Below, piece by piece: positions 1-39,458 of a stretch of 39,458 nucleotides of DNA (positions are counted from its first letter, which is position 1; each line of letters begins with the position of its first letter). The translations under genes and the position numbers were made by a program. The stretch lies in the IMG/VR virus record IMGVR_UViG_2698536397_000026. One strand, 5' to 3'. Source of the stretch: a virus (lineage: Duplodnaviria; Heunggongvirae; Uroviricota; Caudoviricetes). Below the pieces are notes generated by a model. That model ran no database searches and had not been told where the DNA came from. It saw only the letters and a program-made list of their open reading frames with translations.

Positions 1-108
1 ATGACGCTCGCGAAGTTTGCCATGATTTTCTGGCACGACCTGGCAGCACCGATCCTGGCGGGGATTATTACCGCAGCGATTGTCGGCTGGTGGCGTAACC
101 GGAAGTAA
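1..108 (+). CDS. ldr: Ldr-family type I toxin peptide (35 aa), flanking host copy 1
   Basis: 35-aa hydrophobic ORF MTLAKFAMIFWHDLAAPILAGIITAAIVGWWRNRK; matches my recollection of E. coli Ldr toxins (FWHDLAAP motif); near-identical copy at 39351..39458. Confidence 0.6.
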   Translation: MTLAKFAMIFWHDLAAPILAGIITAAIVGWWRNRK

Positions 109-157
109 GGTGAAAACGGGCGTCAGGCTGCCGTGATGGCAATATGCGCCCGAAACC

Positions 158-190
158 GGCCGCAGGGGTAACAGCCTGCGGCCATTTTTG
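158..190 (+). terminator. rho-independent terminator downstream of ldr copy 1
   Basis: 9-bp GC-rich stem GGCCGCAGG / CCTGCGGCC with 8-nt loop, followed by ATTTTTG. Confidence 0.6.
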
Positions 191-223
191 TCTTTATCTC
201 TTCCACAAGTAAATATTGGCAAC

Positions 224-396
224 TGTAACCAGGTGAATCATTTGATACCAACGAGGGTTTTAGTGAAAGGAGGTGAAATCACCTGTAAGATACTGAAATA
301 AAACAGGTGATGTCTGGATGAGCGCTTAAAGTCTATTTGATACCGATTGTGCAATAATTAATCGTTTATTCTAAAATCGGCAAAACTTTTGATACT
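224..396. repeat. attL: left end with three transposase-binding repeats (TTTGATACY at 241, 336, 388)
   Basis: Motif TTTGATAC(C/T) recurs three times, and three times in inverse orientation at the right end; spacing (95 bp, then 52 bp) resembles Mu L1/L2/L3. Confidence 0.5.
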
Positions 397-494: not shown

Positions 495-1079
495 TTACGC
501 ACCAGCCTTTTTCTGGGTTACATTTAAATGATTAACCTTAGCTTCACATTCTTCATAAATCTCTCTTACAGTATCATCGGGTAACTCTTGTAGACTCAAT
601 GCTAGTGCTCTTTTGACTCCGCTCAATGAGTGTAGTTTTTGAATATCTGTATCAAGCAAAACGGTTAGTAGTTCGGCCCCTTTTCTGATCAATAAGTTGG
701 ACAAAATCTCTTGTTCAGATGAAGTTAGCGAGTCCCACGCCCTCATGATGATGGAATCACTATCATCAATTCTTTGTTTTTTTGTTCTTTTTGTTTGTTC
801 AATTGGTTCTTTTTTCATGCTTGGCTCATCACCATAACCATTGACTAGCCACTCCATAGATACATGTTCTCTTTCTGCAATGTTCTGGAGATGGTGCTTT
901 CTTGGTTGTGGTGGCGGCTGATTGTTTCTCCTTTTGTAGTAGTTCTGCAATGTCTGAACGTTTATTCCCCATGCTCTAGCCGCCTCACTTCTCGATTTGT
1001 AACGCTCTGCAAGACGAAAAATCCGTTCGATCACTGGTTCTTTTCCTTCGTCGAGAAAAGAACTGTTTTTCATGTTCAT
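495..1079 (-). CDS. repressor (Mu c-like), leftward; start chosen at internal ATG with AGGAA RBS (ORF extends to 1208)
   Basis: Divergent to ner at the left end as in Mu; HTH-like segment SRSEAARAWGINVQTLQNYYKRR; AAGGAA 8 nt upstream of ATG at 1079. Confidence 0.55.
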   Translation of the reverse strand: MNMKNSSFLDEGKEPVIERIFRLAERYKSRSEAARAWGINVQTLQNYYKRRNNQPPPQPRKHHLQNIAEREHVSMEWLVNGYGDEPSMKKEPIEQTKRTKKQRIDDSDSIIMRAWDSLTSSEQEILSNLLIRKGAELLTVLLDTDIQKLHSLSGVKRALALSLQELPDDTVREIYEECEAKVNHLNVTQKKAGA

Positions 1080-1118
1080 GCTCTCAGGTTCCTTTGTATT
1101 TATCTTATTGATATTAAT

Positions 1119-1180
1119 AACAAAAACACCGCAAAGAATAAAAAGAACAAAACACCTTGATTTGGTTCTTTTGTTTGTTC
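1119..1180. promoter_or_regulatory. candidate repressor operator repeats between c and ner
   Basis: Direct repeats AACAAAAACACC (1119..1130) and GAACAAAACACC (1145..1156), with inverted partner TGTTTGTTC (1172..1180), in an AT-rich divergent control region. Confidence 0.35.
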
Positions 1181-1186
1181 TATTAT
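1157..1186 (+). promoter_or_regulatory. candidate early promoter (Pe-like) for ner-A-B
   Basis: TTGATT -18 bp- TATTAT about 60 bp upstream of ner ATG. Confidence 0.35.
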
Positions 1187-1197
1187 TTACCCGTACA

Positions 1198-1221
1198 GAT
1201 ATCCGCACGAATATCCGCGCG
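1198..1221. promoter_or_regulatory. candidate Ner operator: tandem 12-bp repeats
   Basis: GATATCCGCACG immediately followed by AATATCCGCGCG, between candidate Pe and ner start; Mu Ner is known to bind tandem repeats in this position. Confidence 0.4.
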
Positions 1222-1246: not shown

Positions 1247-1495
1247 ATGAGTAGAAGAGAAGTTTCAGATCACGATTGGCCGCCTGAAATCATCAAGGCG
1301 CGCTTACACATGGCTGGCTTATCACTGCGCTCTTTATCTTTAAAGGCTGGTTACAGCAGGGATTCGCTGAAAAGCGTATTACGTACTCCTTGCCGACCGT
1401 ATCAGCAAATAATTGCTGATGCTCTTGGGGTATCGCCTGAAGAAATCTGGCCCAGTCGATACCAGGTTAAGAGCTATATGAGAAAGGCGTCATGA
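1247..1495 (+). CDS. ner: Ner-like DNA-binding transcriptional regulator
   Basis: 82 aa; C-terminal ...PEEIWPSRYQ matches Mu Ner/Nlp family signature as I recall it; position immediately upstream of transposase; RBS AGAGGAAG. Confidence 0.8.
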   Translation: MSRREVSDHDWPPEIIKARLHMAGLSLRSLSLKAGYSRDSLKSVLRTPCRPYQQIIADALGVSPEEIWPSRYQVKSYMRKAS

Positions 1496-1496
1496 T

Positions 1497-3587
1497 ATGT
1501 ATGTCATTGCAAAAGAACTGATTGGCGCGCCCGGAATGCCTGCTACAACAAAAGGTATTCGCCAGGCATTACAACGTTACGTACAAGGGAAAAGCTGTTG
1601 TTCCCGTCGTCGCTCAGGCTCTAAAGCAACTGAATACAGCATCGACTGTTTACCTGAAGTGACGCAGCAGGCATTACGTGAACGTTATGCCCTGCAACTG
1701 ATGACGCAAAAAGCCGATGAATCACCGGCTCCGGTGGTGACAAAGGCCAGACGCTCATCTGACGTGGTTGATGCGGTGGAGGCATATCGCGGATCACCAC
1801 AACTGATGGTCGAACGCCTCAATGCCCTGACTGAAAACCAGCGCCAGGTGGCTGATGCACGAATCGCGATCGTCAGCGAAGTGATGAAAGTCGCGCAACA
1901 ACCCGGTTTCAGCTGCGCGAAAGCTATCCGGTTTATCGTTGACAACCTGGCACGTTCGCAACTGGACGAGCGCATTGTGGCAATGGTTGAGACGGCGAAC
2001 GCCAAAAAGGGAAACAGCCGTGCGTTGAGTGAAATAACGCTGAAACGCTGGATTGCGGCCTTTAACAAGGCGCAGAACGCCGCTGAACGCCTGCTTTTAC
2101 TGGCACCGGGTAAGCGCCAGGAAATAAAAGCCGAAGATATTAACTGGCTGCCCGAATTTCTGGCGCAGTATCGCCAGTCAAACGGCCGACCAATGACCGA
2201 GGCTTACGAGGATTTTGTCGCTGAATGGCAGCACCGGCACGCTGATGAGCCTTATATGCTCGATATCATGCCGTCTTATGACACCATTCGCCGCGCAATG
2301 AAGAAACTGCCGGAAGTGGTGAAACAAAAAGGCCGGGTGACCGGCAGTGAATACCGCCAGCTTGAGGGATTCACGCGCCGCGACTGGTCAAAAATGCCGG
2401 TGAATTATGTCTGGATTGGTGACGGTCACGGCATGAAGCTGAAATGCGCACACCCGGTTCACGGTCGGCCATTTGCACCGGAAGTGACCTTTGTTATCGA
2501 CGGTGGCACGCGCTTTGTGGTGGGCTGGAGCCTTGACCTGGCTGAAAATGTTTTCGCCGTAGCCGGTGCCATACAGCACGGCATTCGCCATCACGGCAAA
2601 CCGTTTCTGTATTACTCGGATAACGGCTCCGGGGAAACCGCCGACATCCTGGATAAGGAGGTTGTGGGGATACTGCCGCGACTGGGGATTAATCACCCGA
2701 CCGGGATTGCCGGTAATCCGCAGGGACGAGGCATTATCGAACGGCTTAACCGCACATTACCGATGCGCATAGCCCGTAAATACCGCACCTATTTCGGGAA
2801 AGGTGCAGATCGCGAGACGTTACGCAAAACCAACCGCGATTTACGCTCGGCATTTACTGCCCTGCAACAGGGCAAACGGCTGAACGCCCGGCAGCAGTCA
2901 GCGATGCGTGATTTACCGTCCTGGTCTGAACTGATTGATGCCATTCGTGACGGTGTTGAGTGGTACAACAACCGGCCGCACGATGAATTACCGGTGAAGC
3001 CGAACGGCAAGCATTACAGCCCGGCGGAGTTCAGAAAAAAACGCCTGGCGGAAGAGGACACGGAAATTGAATGGCTGTCCGATGTTGAGCTGCGGGATAT
3101 GTTCCGGCCGATGGTGGAACGCCCTGTAAGACGCTGTGAAATACGCTGGCTGAATAATATTTACTACGCGCCCGAGCTGCGTGACGAGCATGGTCGTAAG
3201 GTGCTTATCAGCTATGACATTCATGATGCCGAACGAATTACCGTACGTCGCCTGGATGGCAGCGTGATTTGCGAGGCGGTATGGGACGGTAATAAACGCG
3301 AAGCCTTCCCGGTTAGCGCGGAATACTACAAACAGCAGCAACGCCTTAAAGGCATGCGTAAACGCGCAGAGGAAAAAATCCGTGATGCCGAGGATGAGGT
3401 TGTCAACGTGCTGGAGCACAAGCCGCAGGAGCCCTGGCTGGAAAACATATACCGCCCTGTGGGTAATACGGTGACCGTTCAGCAACCGGTCGCTGACGAT
3501 GAACCTGATGAAGAATACGAGCGTAATTTCCAGCGGGGATTGCAGTTGCTGGAAGCGAAATTAAAAGAAAATGACCCGCTGGCCTGA
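1497..3587 (+). CDS. A: Mu-type DDE transposase (MuA-like)
   Basis: 696 aa, second gene of early operon, start overlaps ner stop (TGATATG); size and position as MuA. Confidence 0.85.
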   Translation: MYVIAKELIGAPGMPATTKGIRQALQRYVQGKSCCSRRRSGSKATEYSIDCLPEVTQQALRERYALQLMTQKADESPAPVVTKARRSSDVVDAVEAYRGSPQLMVERLNALTENQRQVADARIAIVSEVMKVAQQPGFSCAKAIRFIVDNLARSQLDERIVAMVETANAKKGNSRALSEITLKRWIAAFNKAQNAAERLLLLAPGKRQEIKAEDINWLPEFLAQYRQSNGRPMTEAYEDFVAEWQHRHADEPYMLDIMPSYDTIRRAMKKLPEVVKQKGRVTGSEYRQLEGFTRRDWSKMPVNYVWIGDGHGMKLKCAHPVHGRPFAPEVTFVIDGGTRFVVGWSLDLAENVFAVAGAIQHGIRHHGKPFLYYSDNGSGETADILDKEVVGILPRLGINHPTGIAGNPQGRGIIERLNRTLPMRIARKYRTYFGKGADRETLRKTNRDLRSAFTALQQGKRLNARQQSAMRDLPSWSELIDAIRDGVEWYNNRPHDELPVKPNGKHYSPAEFRKKRLAEEDTEIEWLSDVELRDMFRPMVERPVRRCEIRWLNNIYYAPELRDEHGRKVLISYDIHDAERITVRRLDGSVICEAVWDGNKREAFPVSAEYYKQQQRLKGMRKRAEEKIRDAEDEVVNVLEHKPQEPWLENIYRPVGNTVTVQQPVADDEPDEEYERNFQRGLQLLEAKLKENDPLA

Positions 3588-3658: not shown

Positions 3659-4591
3659 ATGACTGATATTAACGATGTAATCAAGACCATTGATGAACTT
3701 ATTGATGGCGGCGTACTGACGCAGTATGCCATCGCCAGAGAGGCGGGAATTTCCGACGGCACATTATCGGCTTTCCGTAAGGGAAAATATAAAGGCGATA
3801 ACGCTGCTGTGGCTGCTTCCCTGCGTTCCTGGTATGAGAACTGGAATAAACAAAGCGCACTGCCGGAACCGCCGCAGTTTGTGGAAACGCAGACAGTCCA
3901 GGAGCTGCGCGCACTGTTTCAGGCGGTTCGTCTGATGGGCTGTATTAACGTTATTGTGGGCGTACCGGGTGTGGGTAAAACGGCCACTGCCCGTAATTAC
4001 TGCCAGGAGCAACCAAACACCTGGATGATCACCCTGTCACCCGCGCACTCCAGCGTCACGGAGTGTCTGCTGGAGCTGGCCGATGCGCTGGGGATTGATT
4101 ACACCCGCGCGAACAAAGGGGCATTATCCCGCGCCATCCGCCGTCGCCTGATGGGAACGCGTGGACTGGTGATTGTGGATGAGGCGGATCATCTTGGTAT
4201 TGACGGTCTGGAGCAACTCCGGGCAATTCAGGACGCCACGGGGATCGGGATGGTGCTTATTGGTAACCCGCGCGGATTGTTTAAAGGTGGACGCCGCGCC
4301 TTTGATGATTTATCGCGCCTGTTCAGCCGTCTTGCCCGTACAAAACAACTTCGCAAGGCCAAAAAGGCGGATGTGCTGGCCATTGCCAGGGCGTGGGGGA
4401 TCAGTGGTGAGGCCGAGCTGGCCGTCATGCAGGCTATCGCTGAAAAGCCGGGAGCGTTACGCGTTCTGACACATACGCTTAACCAGGCGTGGCTCACCGC
4501 CAGCGGTGAAGGCGCGGCGCTGACAGAAAAACATATTAATGCGGCCTTTAAAGAGGTTTATACCAACCCTGAATTACTCTCACAGGTGTGA
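3659..4591 (+). CDS. B: transposition ATPase / target DNA activator (MuB-like)
   Basis: 310 aa; Walker A GVPGVGKT and Walker B LVIVDEAD; directly after transposase. Confidence 0.85.
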   Translation: MTDINDVIKTIDELIDGGVLTQYAIAREAGISDGTLSAFRKGKYKGDNAAVAASLRSWYENWNKQSALPEPPQFVETQTVQELRALFQAVRLMGCINVIVGVPGVGKTATARNYCQEQPNTWMITLSPAHSSVTECLLELADALGIDYTRANKGALSRAIRRRLMGTRGLVIVDEADHLGIDGLEQLRAIQDATGIGMVLIGNPRGLFKGGRRAFDDLSRLFSRLARTKQLRKAKKADVLAIARAWGISGEAELAVMQAIAEKPGALRVLTHTLNQAWLTASGEGAALTEKHINAAFKEVYTNPELLSQV

Positions 4592-5943: not shown

Positions 5944-6474
5944 ATGGCTAAACGTGTTACAAAATTAAAGGCCGCAGCCGAGGCTGCACCGCAGACCCGC
6001 GAAGAAGTCAGCCGCGATATCCGTACCCTGGGCGATATTCAGCGAGAGGCGCTGCGGCTGGAAACGGCGATGAATGATGAAGTGGCAGAAATCACCGCCC
6101 GTTATACGCCGCAGATTGAAAACCTTAAAAAAGAAATCAAAGTGCTTTTTAAGGGGATTCAGGACTGGTGCAAAACCAACCGCGATGAGCTGACGAACGG
6201 CGGCAAAACCAAAACAGCCAATCTGACCACCGGAACAGTGTCATGGCGGCTGGGAAATCCATCATGCAGCGTCAGCCGTGATGTGGAAGGTGTGATTGAA
6301 ATGCTGCGCCGTATGGGGCTTGAGCGATTCATCCGCACGAAAGAGGAAGTGAACAAGGAAGCGGTCCTGGCGGAGCCGGATGCAGTGAAAGGCATTGCCG
6401 GTATTAAGGTGAATAAAGGCGCTGAAAGTTTTTATGTCGAGCCTTTTGAACAGGACGCCGGACTGAATAAATAA
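5944..6474 (+). CDS. gam: Gam-like host-nuclease inhibitor (Mu Gam / Ku-like DNA end binding)
   Basis: 176 aa; MAKRVTKLKAAAEAAPQ... with TANLTTGTVSWR and FIRTKEEVNKEA segments resembling Mu Gam as I recall it; located in early region. Confidence 0.7.
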   Translation: MAKRVTKLKAAAEAAPQTREEVSRDIRTLGDIQREALRLETAMNDEVAEITARYTPQIENLKKEIKVLFKGIQDWCKTNRDELTNGGKTKTANLTTGTVSWRLGNPSCSVSRDVEGVIEMLRRMGLERFIRTKEEVNKEAVLAEPDAVKGIAGIKVNKGAESFYVEPFEQDAGLNK

Positions 6475-17954: not shown

Positions 17955-18075
17955 CGGTCAGTGGCGGGGGTCGAACCCGCATACATGATCCACCCGGAGG
18001 CAGGCACCGACTTTACCAGTTAAGCGTACACTGACCGCCTGTTTATTTTATATTCATCCTTTATGCGGAGGCAAT

Positions 18076-31599: not shown

Positions 31600-32150
31600 C
31601 CCTGACCCCGCATCAGCGTGCCCTGTTGCAGTTGCTGCCTGACGGGCTGGCATGGGATAAGCGGCCGTCATCCGTTCTTGCGGCTTTGTGCCTGGGCCTC
31701 AGTCATTCCACGGAGCGTGTTTCCTGGACCGGTAACCAGATGCTGGCAGAACGTTTTCCTGATTCATCCCGTCTGCTGCTGGAAGACTGGGAGCGTTATC
31801 TGGGGTTACCGGAATGTGATATGACCGGCGCAACCATTCAGGAGCGTCAGCGTTATGCCGGGAATAAATACCGGATGAAACCCTCTCTTAACCGTGAATT
31901 TTATATCCGGTTTGCGGCAGAGTTTGGTTATGAAATAGATATTCAGCCATCACCGGATTCACAGTGGGTCAGTATTGTCACGATTAACAGTGAAACCGGC
32001 TACCGGAATATGAATGTGCTGGATGATATTCTCACCCCGCTGCGTATTTATGAGGGTGGTGCGCTGGAATGTATTCTGAACCGTTATAAGCCTGCATGGC
32101 AGACGTTTATTTACGTGTATGCAAACAGCCATGAAGAGGAGACTATTTAA
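31590..32150 (+). CDS. tail protein (Mu gp48-like)
   Basis: 186 aa between J-like and tail fibre. Confidence 0.5.
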   Translation: MAVTLTPHQRALLQLLPDGLAWDKRPSSVLAALCLGLSHSTERVSWTGNQMLAERFPDSSRLLLEDWERYLGLPECDMTGATIQERQRYAGNKYRMKPSLNREFYIRFAAEFGYEIDIQPSPDSQWVSIVTINSETGYRNMNVLDDILTPLRIYEGGALECILNRYKPAWQTFIYVYANSHEEETI

Positions 32151-33061
32151 TGTTTCATGTTGATAATAATTCCGGCGTGGCGAATATGCCTGCGCTGGCA
32201 CCGGCGCAGAGTAATACCACCACCTGGTTTACCGAAGGTGACGGACAAAAAGGTATCAGCTGGATTGGTCAGGACTGGCTGAATATTCTCCAGGCCGAAC
32301 TGCTGAATATTCTGGCTGAAGCCAGTATTCAGCCGGATAAGGCGCAGTTAAACCAGCTTACGCTGTCCATTAAAGCCATTATCGCTGCGAATGCCTTTTC
32401 CCGGAAAAACAACCTGAAAGAAATTGCTGATGCCGGTGCGGAAGCCCAGCGTCTTGCCCGTGGTTATCTTGGTCTTGGGGCGCTTGCCACAAAAAACAGT
32501 CTTGGTCCCGGTGACGTTAATGCTCTGGCGAAGGATCAGAACCTTGCCGACCTGGAGAATGCGGGAACCGCCCGTAATAATCTGGATGTTTACAGCAAAA
32601 GCGAAGGTGATAACCGTTACCTGCGCAGGGAGCAGAACGGCGCAGACATTCCGGATAAAGGCGCTTTTATCGATAACGTCGGTTTACGGGAAACGGTAAA
32701 TAAGGCTGCTGATGCCCTGCCATCGGGTGGAACCGCCGTGGCAGCAAACAGACTCGCCACCCCAAGAAATATTAATGGCGTTCCTTTTGACGGAACGCAG
32801 GATATCAACATCACGTCAGGAATGACGCAGTCAACCGCAGATGGCCGGTATGTACAGAATGTTCAGCTTGGAGCACAGAGCTATCATTCACCCGGAGGCA
32901 ATGAAATATCATGGAATTACAGCGCACCTTCCGGTTGTATGCTTTCCGGTATTAACGTGCAGGAAACCGGCTCCCGGTCTGCGGACAATATCGGTGGGGT
33001 CTATTATCGCCCGGTTCAGATTTATATTAATAATGCCTGGAGAACGGTAAGTTCAGTGTAA
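32150..33061 (+). CDS. tail fibre protein (constant N-terminal part plus invertible C-terminal cassette Sv)
   Basis: 303 aa; C-terminal region homologous to an oppositely oriented cassette at 33739..34093; gix-like site inside the gene at about 32679. Confidence 0.7.
   Translation: MFHVDNNSGVANMPALAPAQSNTTTWFTEGDGQKGISWIGQDWLNILQAELLNILAEASIQPDKAQLNQLTLSIKAIIAANAFSRKNNLKEIADAGAEAQRLARGYLGLGALATKNSLGPGDVNALAKDQNLADLENAGTARNNLDVYSKSEGDNRYLRREQNGADIPDKGAFIDNVGLRETVNKAADALPSGGTAVAANRLATPRNINGVPFDGTQDINITSGMTQSTADGRYVQNVQLGAQSYHSPGGNEISWNYSAPSGCMLSGINVQETGSRSADNIGGVYYRPVQIYINNAWRTVSSV
32670..32697. other. left gix-like inversion site (within tail fibre gene)
   Basis: TCGGTTTACGGGA shared in inverted orientation with the right site; one half-site degenerate. 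Confidence 0.45.
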
Positions 33062-33095
33062 ACCACAGAAAAGGGTGCTGAATGCACCCTCTGAA

Positions 33096-33617
33096 TTATT
33101 CCGGTTTTTCCGGCCAGGGAATCGCCTGGTAATGCCCCTCACTGGCAATATCATTAAAGTGCATTTCTTTAAGCTGTCGGATATACGCCATCCAGCGCGT
33201 CAGCTGTAATTTATTTTCATCGCTAATCATGTCCAGTTTTAATTCTGTTTTCCAGTCATCCACGGTTTCGTTGGCTTCCTGGAGCAGCGATGAGCGACGC
33301 TTTTCAGCAACCGTCTTCCAGTTTACCGGCACCTTTGATATCAGGCCATCAGAAAACTGCCAGTTACCGTCAATATTCACACCTTCCGGCAGTTCGTCCA
33401 CTTCAACAACAGTAAAACCTGCCGGATATAAAGCAGAGACATCTTCAGCAACAGAGCAGATAATACCCGTTACAGGCGAAATACAGAGTTTGTATTTCTT
33501 TGTGAAAAGCGGGATAGATTCATAAAAATCCCTTCCGTCCTCACTCTGGAAATACTGAACATCCTCACCATAGGGTTTGTGTTTCGGGTAATATCGTTTG
33601 ACATTAATCAGTTGCAT
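33096..33617 (-). CDS. tail fibre assembly protein (Tfa / U'-like)
   Basis: N-terminal region MQLINVKRYYPKHKPYGEDVQYFQSEDGRDFYE typical of Tfa chaperones; start probably at an internal Met (track ORF extends to 33668). Confidence 0.7.
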   Translation of the reverse strand: MQLINVKRYYPKHKPYGEDVQYFQSEDGRDFYESIPLFTKKYKLCISPVTGIICSVAEDVSALYPAGFTVVEVDELPEGVNIDGNWQFSDGLISKVPVNWKTVAEKRRSSLLQEANETVDDWKTELKLDMISDENKLQLTRWMAYIRQLKEMHFNDIASEGHYQAIPWPEKPE

Positions 33618-33738
33618 AAACATCACCATGTAAATCAATGATAAAAACAGGAATAATACTATCGCCATATACAGGCAATGCTTGTCTGAAATAACGCATA
33701 TTTCAGATGCTGGCTGCTGTGTGCTATGCCCCCGTTAA

Positions 33739-34093
33739 TTAAATACTTGCAGCGGATACCCAATGCCCATTAATACAATATTGTATCTGTCTGTAATAAA
33801 CACGGTCATCACCACCACGCATTTCCCAGTCTCCGTTAGTCTTAAAACCGGTAATCACATTTCCTGATGACAGGGAGTAATTATATTCCAGTCCGCCGCT
33901 TAATGCCTGCGCTCCCAGTCTTACCCCTGTAACATAACGCTGATTGGCCGTTGATTCCGGCATTCCTGACGTAATGTTTATATCCTGCGTGCCGTCAAAG
34001 GCGACACCATTGATTCTGCGGGCATTTGCCAGCCTGCTTGCTGCAACAGCCGTACCGTTTGATGGCAGGGCATTCGCGGCCCTGTTTACAGTA
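33739..34093 (-). CDS. alternative tail fibre C-terminal cassette (S'v), no own start codon
   Basis: Minus-strand frame open from right gix site; encodes ...INGVAFDGTQDINITSGMPESTANQRYV... homologous to the end of the plus-strand fibre gene. Confidence 0.6.
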
Positions 34094-34117
34094 TCCCGTA
34101 AACCGAGGTTTCAGGGA
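34094..34117. other. right gix-like inversion site
   Basis: TCCCGTAAACCGAGGTTTCAGGGA, near-palindromic and close to the Mu gix / Salmonella hix consensus as I recall it; 55 bp upstream of gin. Confidence 0.6.
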
Positions 34118-34172
34118 TGCCGTATATCTGCTTTAAAAGGCCTTTCCATCTCTTTTTAAGGAAGGTAAATAC

Positions 34173-34733
34173 ATGCTGATTGGCTATATACGCGTATCAA
34201 CAAATGACCAGAACACAGGTTTACAAAGAAATGCGCTGGAATGTGCAGGATGTGAGCAGATTTTTGAAGATAAAATGAGCGGAAAAACAACGCAGCGGCC
34301 GGGACTGAAGCGGGCACTGAAGAAACTAAAACCCGGTGACACGCTGATGGTCTGGAAACTGGACAGGCTGGGGCGCAGTATGCGCCACCTTGTTGCGCTG
34401 ACAGATGAATTACAGCAACAGGGGATAAATTTTCGTAGTCTTACTGACAACATTGATACGTCAACCCCCATGGGGCGCTTCTTTTTTCACATAATGGGTG
34501 CGCTGGCAGAAATGGAGCGTGAATTAATTGTCGAACGGACACGGGCTGGTCTTGCAGCTGCCCGTGAAAGGGGACGAACCGGCGGCAGACCCCGTCGTCT
34601 CACGCAGGAACAATACGAGCAGGTCGGGCGTTTACTGGCCGGGGGTGTCAGTCGAAGACAGGTGGCACTTATTTTTGATATCGGCCTTTCAACCCTTTAT
34701 CGTTATTATCCTGCGAGCGTTTCGGAAAAATAA
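34173..34733 (+). CDS. gin: serine recombinase, DNA invertase (Gin/Hin/Cin family)
   Basis: 186 aa; MLIGYIRVSTNDQ... catalytic Ser motif and C-terminal HTH; RBS AAGGAAGG. Confidence 0.9.
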   Translation: MLIGYIRVSTNDQNTGLQRNALECAGCEQIFEDKMSGKTTQRPGLKRALKKLKPGDTLMVWKLDRLGRSMRHLVALTDELQQQGINFRSLTDNIDTSTPMGRFFFHIMGALAEMERELIVERTRAGLAAARERGRTGGRPRRLTQEQYEQVGRLLAGGVSRRQVALIFDIGLSTLYRYYPASVSEK

Positions 34734-38014: not shown

Positions 38015-38215
38015 ATGTATCGAAACATACGGTGCCGACACTGCAATAAGCTACTGGCACGGGCCAGTTTCAGTTATCTGGAAGTAAAATGTCCGCGCTG
38101 TAAAACCCTCAATCAAATCACATCTCCGAGCGCCACAGAGCACCCCACATACACAAGGAAATCCTGTCGTGGGGAACAGAAAGCAAGTCACATCCCGTAT
38201 CATCAGCACGCCTGA
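38015..38215 (+). CDS. com: Com-like zinc-finger translational activator of mom
   Basis: [30 protein letters not shown] closely parallels Mu Com zinc finger as I recall it; RBS AGGAGG; overlaps downstream mom-like ORF. Confidence 0.8.
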
Positions 38216-38906
38216 ACTTATTCGCTATAACGACAATATCGTTGGTTATGGCTCCCGTGAGTTGCGGGTTGAGACAATAAGTTGCTGGCTGGCCAGACTG
38301 GTTATCGTCAATAAACATTACAGCCACCGTTTCGTAAATAATTCCTACCTTCATCTGGGTATATTTTCAGAACGGGAACTTGTTGGCGTAATGCAATGGG
38401 GTTACGCCCTTAACCCAAACAGTGGTGCACGCGTCGTAACGGGTACGCAGAACCGAGAATATATGGAGCTTAACCGGCTATGGATGCATGACTGTATGCC
38501 GAGAAACTCCGAATCAAGGGCAATCAGTTACGCGCTCAAGCTAATCAGGCAGCTTTATCCGCAGGTACAGTGGGTTCAGTCGTTTGCAGATGAGCGTTGT
38601 GGCTGTCTTGGTGTCGTGTATCAGGCAAGCAATTTTGATTATGTAGGCAGCCATGAATCAACATTCTATGAACTTGATGGCGAGTGGTATCACGAGATTT
38701 GCAGGAGTGCCATTAAACGAGGCGGACAACGAGGTGAACATCTGAGGGCTAATATCGACAGAGCCAGTGTGCATAAGTTCCGACAGTTTCGTTACATCCG
38801 GTTTCTGAACAAGAGGGCCAGAAAACGCCTCAACACAAAGCTATTCAAAGTCCAGCCTTACCCAAAACCACAAACAGTTAAAACTGGTTTGAAAGAGAGT
38901 GAATGA
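38169..38906 (+). CDS. mom: Mom-like DNA modification protein; start codon uncertain
   Basis: 245-aa ORF overlapping com 3' end, last gene before right end, exactly as Mu mom; track start is GTG. Confidence 0.65.
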
Positions 38907-38951: not shown

Positions 38952-39036
38952 AGTATCAAATAAGTTGCGTATCGGCGTTTTTCAGCGGTATCAAATGAAA
39001 TGCAAATCGGTATCAAAAAAATCGCCGCGCTATACA
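38952..39036. repeat. attR: right end with three inverted transposase-binding repeats (rTTTGATACY at 38952, 38988, 39009), terminus ...GCGCTATACA
   Basis: GGTATCAAA / AGTATCAAA are reverse complements of left-end repeats; terminal CGCCGCGCTATACA resembles the Mu right end in my recollection. Confidence 0.5.
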
Positions 39037-39350
39037 ACCCGAGCTGGAAGCATCATCCAGAGCCCTCATGAAACGACTGTAACAGCTGTTGAAAAACCGG
39101 AATGCACTCTTCATTGCAAACATTTCAGGGATGAAGTGAAGATGAATTGAGACGTAGTATCCACATCAAGCCGGCGTTATCCGGTGAGGCGCAATGTTGC
39201 GGGGGCTTTATCCCTGGTGGCATTGGTTGCTGGAAAGAGAAAACCCCCGCACGTTGAGAGGTTTAACCTGACAACAGAACGGGGGCTAATCTTGAACCAG
39301 AACAATTCAAGAATAGCCGCAAAATGTTGTCATTACAACAAGGCGGCTAT

Positions 39351-39458
39351 ATGACGCTCGCGCAGTTTGCCATGATTTTCTGGCACGACCTGGCAGCACC
39401 GATCCTGGCGGGAATTATTACCGCAGCGATTGTCGGCTGGTGGCGTAACCGGAAGTAA
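39351..39458 (+). CDS. ldr: Ldr-family type I toxin peptide (35 aa), flanking host copy 2
   Basis: MTLAQFAMIFWHDLAAPILAGIITAAIVGWWRNRK; differs from copy 1 at 2 of 108 nt (K5Q plus one silent change). Confidence 0.6.
   Translation: MTLAQFAMIFWHDLAAPILAGIITAAIVGWWRNRK

Follow-up and report, generated by a model that had tools for sequence, protein, structure and literature searches.

Transposable phages and prophage Sp18

To our knowledge, textbook accounts give all Mu-like (pro)phages TG…CA ends together with duplications of 5 or 6 bp. Reviews call TG…CA universal for Mu- and B3-like phages (PMC8705779, PMC4378225), and the D3112-like phages carry 5'-TGT at both ends (PMC4378225). For Leptospira prophages, ends of the TA-TA type were described in 2021 as a novelty (PMC8705779). 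Duplications of 6 bp are described for B3 (PMC8705779) and of 4 bp for gammaretroviral integrases (PMC2857682).

Sp18, a prophage of O157 Sakai, is intact, packaged and not circularised (PMC2669165). Insertion sites of the Sp18 type are strain-specific (PMC7430833, PMC10132054), and the paper presenting LC727895 names its Mu-like phages Sp18-like (PMC10132054). No statement on Sp18-type ends or on the length of their duplication was found in the searchable literature, outside which the likeliest sources (Morgan et al. 2002; Braid et al. 2004) lie. The 4-bp duplication itself is already on record as a GenBank feature (LC727895).

The stretch of DNA analysed here in its whole length of 39,458 bp (the window) contains a complete Sp18-type Mu-like transposable prophage of 38,811 bp at positions 224-39034. 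Its ends read 5'-TGTAACCAGG…CGCGCTATA-3' on the plus strand. Both boundaries are set by comparison with an empty site, and the limits annotated by the depositors of LC727895 agree with them. The Sp18 family has been known since 2001 and gains one more member here, whose insertion is ordinary once the right end, placed at 39036 in a preliminary description, is moved by 2 bp.

Organization of the prophage

The window begins in a host LDR unit with an ldr type I toxin ORF (1-108, plus strand). This ORF is identical to the ldr CDS at positions 1501-1608 of the uninterrupted locus L001 (NZ_CP025916), which is annotated as 'type I toxin-antitoxin system toxin Ldr family protein'. It is followed by a terminator-like hairpin and a T run (158-183, plus strand; consensus scan) and by the left copy of a 4-bp target-site duplication, CAAC (220-223), recognized from its overlap in the empty site. 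The prophage starts with the terminal dinucleotide TG (224-225, plus strand), which is CA-3' on the bottom, transferred strand. A motif scan located three repeat cores on the plus strand of the left end, an L1-like TTTGATACC (241-249), an L2-like TTTGATACC (336-344) and an L3-like TTTGATACT (388-396), all putative sites of transposase binding. The right end carries their minus-strand counterparts, an R3-like TTTGATACT (38952-38960), an R2-like TTTGATACC (38987-38995) and, 22 bp from the latter, an R1-like TTTGATACC (39009-39017). If the termini are 224 and 39034, the L1-like and R1-like cores both occupy positions 18-26, counted from their respective ends. The two ends then have 19 of 30 bases in common, against 10 of 30 with a right end at 39036. 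The right terminal dinucleotide is TA-3' and not CA (39033-39034, plus strand), as judged from the empty site and from other copies. It abuts the right copy of CAAC (39035-39038). Host DNA continues with an intact rdl antitoxin RNA gene (39238-39303, minus strand; Rfam RF01813, 87.6 bits, E = 3e-19) and the ldr toxin ORF of the same downstream LDR unit (39352-39458, plus strand), the latter identical to L001 2036-2143.

The immunity region holds an ORF in the position of the repressor (495-1208, minus strand; ORF list), whose counterpart in FRIK804 is annotated 'phage repressor protein', and a protein in the position of Ner (1247-1495, plus strand; ORF list), annotated 'helix-turn-helix domain-containing protein' in relatives. 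A transposase of 696 aa (1497-3587, plus strand; Pfam) and a MuB-like AAA+ target-DNA activator (3659-4591, plus strand; 48% identical to Mu B, E = 4e-97) follow. A transposase gene followed by a gene for a MuB-type AAA+ ATPase near the left end, the broad mark of a Mu-like phage, is present. Behind the MuB-like gene come genes for lysis, head and tail and an invertible region of tail-fibre genes, and com/mom occupy the right end. The last prophage gene is a Mom-like DNA modification gene (38169-38906, plus strand; ORF list) annotated 'Mom family adenine methylcarbamoylation protein' in identical copies. This gene order of the window ORFs is the annotated order in the Sp18 relatives.

Several features differ between copies or between annotations. 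The invertible tail-fibre segment (32150-34733) adjoins a serine recombinase gene (34173-34733), comparable to the G segment of Mu, and the tail-fibre genes vary from copy to copy of the Sp18-type prophage. PGAP annotates a 'tRNA-OTHER' in relatives between the head-morphogenesis and virion-morphogenesis genes (L002 21997-22076 and L003 21567-21646, corresponding to about 17955-18075 of the window); ARAGORN found no tRNA in the whole window. Some prophage copies are interrupted by IS1203 or ISKpn26 (L006 9321-10534, NZ_CP021339.1; L060 8735-9715, NZ_CP145714.1). In NZ_CM129862.1 the modification gene at the right end (L005 732-1784) is annotated as a DNA cytosine methyltransferase and not as mom, with a Com-family gene upstream, and the right end itself bears one substitution (AAAAAAAACGCC).

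Insertion into the LDR spacer

The preliminary description had placed the ends by analogy with Mu at 224 and 39036. Its two joined flanks were searched against all complete E. coli genomes. LDR units were present in 5,426 of 5,426 genomes, and the best matches covered the entire 645-nt query in 643 bases. In strain 120899 the locus is uninterrupted; it is situated in the chaA-kdsA interval and comprises three ldr genes. The empty LDR sequence reads …TTGGCAACCCGAG… and, over a longer stretch, …AAATATTGGCAACCCGAGCTGG…. Aligned with the empty locus (NZ_CP025916, L001 1501-2143), window positions 1-223 match with zero mismatches and the match stops at 224, while positions 39035-39458 match equally without mismatch and stop at 39034. 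The two matches overlap in the empty sequence by CAAC (220-223 and 39035-39038). Because the flanks overlap by CAAC without a mismatch, they bear the mark of a simple insertion that duplicated 4 bp of target.

One transposition or integration event brought the prophage into the E. coli chaA-kdsA region, where it sits in the spacer that separates two tandem ldr/rdl (LDR) units; we hold this, jointly with the TG…TA ends and the 4-bp CAAC duplication, with high confidence. The terminator-like hairpin of the preceding ldr is 40 bp upstream of the insertion point and the rdl RNA of the following unit about 200 bp downstream of it, and the prophage leaves both ldr toxin ORFs and the rdl gene uninterrupted. 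The left ldr has an AAG codon and the right ldr a CAG codon, in the same order as in adjacent units of the empty locus. Four other complete genomes from different countries (NZ_CP045712.1, NZ_AP045170.1, NZ_AP045178.1 and NZ_CM143724.1) share the exact LDR insertion at 99.9-100% identity.

The preliminary description had noted that the 5-mers adjacent to its ends, GCAAC (219-223) and ACCCG (39037-39041), do not match. These letters, as well as TGTAACCAGG from 224 and …GCGCTATACA ending at 39036, are as it quoted them; the mismatch is real, and a 5-bp duplication is absent at every nearby placement. Its left terminus stands, as homology to other copies never begins later than 224 and 14 insertions start their constant part at TGTAACC. 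Its right terminus has to be moved 2 bp inward to 39034, where homology to other copies most often stops (query position 1235), and the terminal 'CA' on which it relied consists of the first two bases of the right CAAC copy. It had named termini off by a few bp, mutated flanks or recombination between two copies as possible reasons. The first of these was right. Mutated flanks are ruled out by the zero mismatches of both flanks to the uninterrupted LDR and their exact 4-bp overlap, and recombination between copies by the match of both flanks to one uninterrupted LDR unit with that same overlap. Alignment to an empty site had been proposed as the check that could correct the termini by a perfect 5-bp duplication at other coordinates. 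It did correct them; the perfect duplication that it revealed is of 4 bp and not of 5 bp.

An 8-bp direct match ACTGTAAC, likewise noted in the preliminary description, is present at 222-229 and 39076-39083. Considered as an alternative duplication, it was rejected as a chance occurrence (2 matches against 0.57 expected, with at least 2 in 11 of 100 shuffles). The right copy belongs to the normal LDR sequence of the host and occurs in the empty site too, and the left copy straddles the junction between host and phage.

Ends and target duplications of independent insertions

Searches with each prophage end found hundreds of copies elsewhere, and in dozens of genomes the identity over 1.3 kb at each end was 99-100%. 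For independent insertions both junctions were fetched and the host bases abutting the constant ends were compared. All 15 independent insertions, located at different loci, showed a perfect abutting direct repeat of exactly 4 bp. These repeats were CAAC in the window (LDR spacer), CAGA in tssM, AAAC in the terminase gene of another prophage, AGCA between uspE and ynaI, CGAC in CM129862 and again in a slipin gene, TAAG between prpD and prpE (FRIK804), CCAA between caiB and caiC, GTAC in an MFS transporter gene, TTAC in irp1, AGAA and AACA in the IMG/VR genomes 2529293218 and 2548876695, AGAG in a copy inside a Stx1 phage (LC727895), TAAA for Sp18 of O157 Sakai in sorM, and GACG for a sister lineage in bcsA. 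The left end was TGTAACC in 14 insertions and TATAACC in the sister lineage (bcsA), and the right end was GCGCTATA throughout the 15 insertions. The terminal sequences of the window, TGTAACCAGGTGAATCATTTGATACC… and …GGTATCAAAAAAATCGCCGCGCTATA, recur unchanged in Sakai Sp18 and in 13 other copies. In IMG/VR, 16 of 16 copies with the subterminal 22-mer end in TATA. The Mu-derived premises of the preliminary description, a right end in CA-3' and a 5-bp duplication, do not apply to the Sp18 type, which has TA-3' and 4 bp in 15 of 15 insertions.

The base preceding the left 4-mer was A in none of the 15 insertions and the base following the right 4-mer was T in 3 of 15, the chance rate, so that no shift of the boundaries yields 5-bp duplications. 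When this procedure was applied to Mu in E. coli W, the ends came out as TG…CA and the repeat as GCCGC, of 5 bp; this control consists of one junction pair, strain PSS-15 having yielded the left Mu junction only. The depositors of LC727895 annotated the 4-bp repeat_region features at 6089-6092 and 45430-45433 with 'duplication due to insertion of Mu_JNE122137', and the inserted region between these repeats begins with TGTAACC and ends with GCGCTATA.

In two IMG genomes, 2617270962 (L025/L031) and 2617271340 (L027/L041), the left and right junctions share no 4-bp repeat. These unpaired junctions probably stem from different copies, or from rearrangement between copies, in multi-copy genomes. 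The feature 'prophage Sp18' of the Sakai record (NC_002695.2, L051/L052) spans 5040971..5079729 where the true ends are 5040970..5079724, i.e. it starts 1 bp inside the left end and overshoots the right end by 5 bp. An imperfect 5-bp repeat, TAAAT/TAAAG, seems to underlie these limits. A search of the phage DNA collection with the left end retrieved no free phage genome of the Sp18 type (two Stx phages with an inserted copy and two weak matches were found), and no Mu record was among its matches.

A heteroimmune sister lineage has the left end TATAACC in place of TGTAACC (TATAACCAGG…GCGCTATA) and with it a perfect TATA/TATA terminal inverted repeat. It occurs on four IMG/VR contigs (L055-L058), and among the top matches in E. 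coli genomes the homology to it begins exactly at the T of the left end at several chromosomal loci. A complete example resides in bcsA (L060 269-38696, NZ_CP145714.1) between copies of the 4-bp repeat GACG. The left junction of a TA-TA variant was found in citD of strain TOE17, and NZ_CP069093.1 (L061) is among the sister-lineage loci. The 5'-TG…CA-3' termini of Mu-like phages were not found in the Sp18 type, in which the left end is TG and the right end is TA-3' in every copy. Since the right end is TA in every copy and the transferred left end is either CA or TA, the conserved feature is a 3'-terminal A after a pyrimidine.

Target preference and alternative placements of the ends

The sequence comparisons make it very probable that the prophage represents a simple Sp18-type insertion, with ends TG (224-225) and TA-3' (39033-39034) and a duplicated CAAC. 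The breach of the TG…CA rule by the Sp18 family means that a specialist might first suspect a misplaced boundary, and three other accounts were weighed.

The first retains a Mu-like cut of 5 bp and lets the element end at 39033 (…CTAT) or start at 225, with one of the duplicated bases systematically altered. It draws on the target sites: if the preceding base is counted in, the resulting 5-mer has Y at position 2 and R at position 4, loosely resembling the Mu target consensus N-Y-S-R-N. A hidden 5-bp stagger had been considered because the first ten sites showed S at -1, and it was dropped after 46 flanks proved symmetric about the 4-mer. These flanks (20 left and 26 right, taken from window 216-223 and 39035-39042 and from loci L002-L046) showed G at -2 in 14 of 20, G/C at -1 in 16 of 20, G/C at +1 in 20 of 26 and C at +2 in 14 of 26. 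The preference is G-S-NNNN-S-C, palindromic about the centre of the duplicated 4-mer and, with more sites, not symmetric about a central base as this account would have it. A palindromic preference of this kind is as expected from a two-fold symmetric complex that cuts 4 bp apart. Moreover, every copy has A39034 and T224, next to host bases that vary. Strand transfer joins the 3' end of an element directly to unmodified target DNA, and no known step would turn the first duplicated base into A every time. We regard a concealed 5-bp cut as highly improbable. A point against the preferred account of a simple insertion with a 4-bp duplication is that the inner part of the 4-mer lacks this symmetry, the third duplicated base showing an excess of A (12 of 20 left and 16 of 26 right flanks).

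The second account, recombination between prophage copies or between LDR repeats that joined the junctions of separate events, has in its favour that LDR units are tandem, that Sp18-type phages are often multi-copy (1-3 copies per genome) and that junction pairs are mismatched in the two IMG/VR genomes mentioned above. Against this, the flanks of the window adjoin each other in an uninterrupted unit, with an overlap of the 4 bp typical of the family, the AAG/CAG order of the ldr genes is that of adjacent units in the empty locus, and the junctions recur identically in four other genomes. On balance, an origin of this kind appears extremely improbable.

Lastly, Mu-type TG…CA termini at 224/39036 with GCAAC and ACCCG as copies of a 5-bp duplication since diverged by mutation can be given practically no credence: TG and CA do occur at these positions and Mu itself has such ends and a 5-bp duplication (PMC3562280), but the flanks are 100% identical to the empty LDR site and hence unmutated, the proposed ends would leave an overlap of no more than 2 bp and bring the L1 and R1 repeats out of register by 2 bp, and the letters that follow …GCTATA differ between copies (AA, AG, CG, TA, CC, GT, TT), which places CA outside the element.

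Transposase and proposed mechanism

The 696-aa transposase has Pfam matches to Mu-transpos_C and HTH_Tnp_Mu_1 and weak matches to rve; the DDE_2 core and HTH_Tnp_Mu_2, both present in MuA, gave no Pfam match in this protein. Its identity to MuA is 22%, and in comparison with solved structures its core (residues 363-426) matches the integrases of ASV/RSV rather than MuA. The nearest transposases of sequenced phages are those of Haemophilus phage SuMu (43% identity over 91% of the protein) and of D3112-like Pseudomonas phages (about 30%). Putative catalytic residues are D309 and D375, aligned to D269 and D336 of MuA, and E415 within the motif GRGIIERLNRTL.

For the simple Sp18-type insertion we propose the following course. 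A DDE transposase with an integrase-like (rve-type) core would bind the TTTGATACC repeats, which are equidistant from both termini, and would expose 3'-OH ends at the terminal Y-A-3'. Together with its MuB-like partner it may then join these 3' ends to target phosphates staggered by 4 bp, as opposed to 5 bp in Mu, and gap repair of the staggered joints would yield the 4-bp duplication. We infer the 4-bp stagger from the scars left in the genomes. By analogy with other systems, a different stagger for a different DDE lineage is plausible.

Implications

In its 4-bp stagger and TA ends the Sp18 family departs from the Mu rule, a fact that has received little publicity. Possibly, though we rate the chances as slightly below even, Sp18-type transposases form a natural class of Mu-like transposase that works with a 4-bp stagger and requires only a Y-A-3' end. 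If true, such a class would contradict the textbook rule, which couples TG…CA ends to duplications of 5 or 6 bp. For the window, the apparent anomaly is removed, and what is left is an intact, simply inserted prophage whose position, a spacer within the array of LDR toxin-antitoxin units, is neutral. Applied to this prophage family, a common one among Shiga-toxin-producing E. coli, rules derived from Mu give wrong boundaries; the Sakai reference record itself is affected. The true ends and the 4-bp scar allow such prophages to be delimited exactly and their empty sites to be recognized. The Sp18-type family furthermore offers a natural system in which to study what sets the stagger length and the requirement for a terminal dinucleotide in DDE transposases.

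Comparison with known systems

The closest relatives are Sp18 of Sakai and the 'Mu-like phages' of STEC (Mu_JNE122137 in LC727895 and Φ804-3 of FRIK804), which have the same termini and a 4-bp repeat. Members of this group share the gene order of the window (repressor, ner, A, B … com, mom) and have ends whose nucleotide identity to those of the window ranges from near-complete down to about 99%. They differ from the window in small accessory genes and in the insertion site, which is the LDR spacer here, sorM in Sakai and prpD-prpE in FRIK804.

With Mu the window has in common the layout of a transposable temperate phage, Com/Mom at the right end and near-random insertion with a short duplication. 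The arrangement of the ends is shared as well, with three repeats per end, L1 apart from L2/L3 and R1 22 bp from R2, and the MuB proteins are related at the 48% identity given above. In contrast to the window, with its TG…TA ends and 4-bp duplication, Mu possesses a MuA with a DDE_2 core, TG…CA ends and a 5-bp duplication (PMC3562280), and its terminal sequences (TGTATTGATTCACTTGAAG… and …GCGCCGCTTCA, AF083977) are unrelated to those of the window. SuMu and the Pseudomonas D3112/DMS3/JBD group possess the nearest transposases, but they have other hosts and unrelated ends. The SuMu record JF832915.1 (L053, L054), labelled 'complete sequence', includes host DNA at both ends, with a fragment of an IS1414 transposase at the right, and leaves the phage termini unmarked.

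The 'TA-TA' prophages of Leptospira carry the terminal dinucleotide TA (PMC8705779), as do both ends of the sister lineage (TATAACC…GCGCTATA), but they generate 6-bp duplications, encode a transposase of the B3/Tn552 type and are unrelated in host and sequence. Gammaretroviral (MLV/XMRV) integrases likewise combine an rve-fold DDE core with a 4-bp duplication and a palindromic target preference (PMC2857682). They differ in having CA-3' ends and no MuB-like partner and show no close homology, so that the likeness to the Sp18 type is a mechanistic analogy only.
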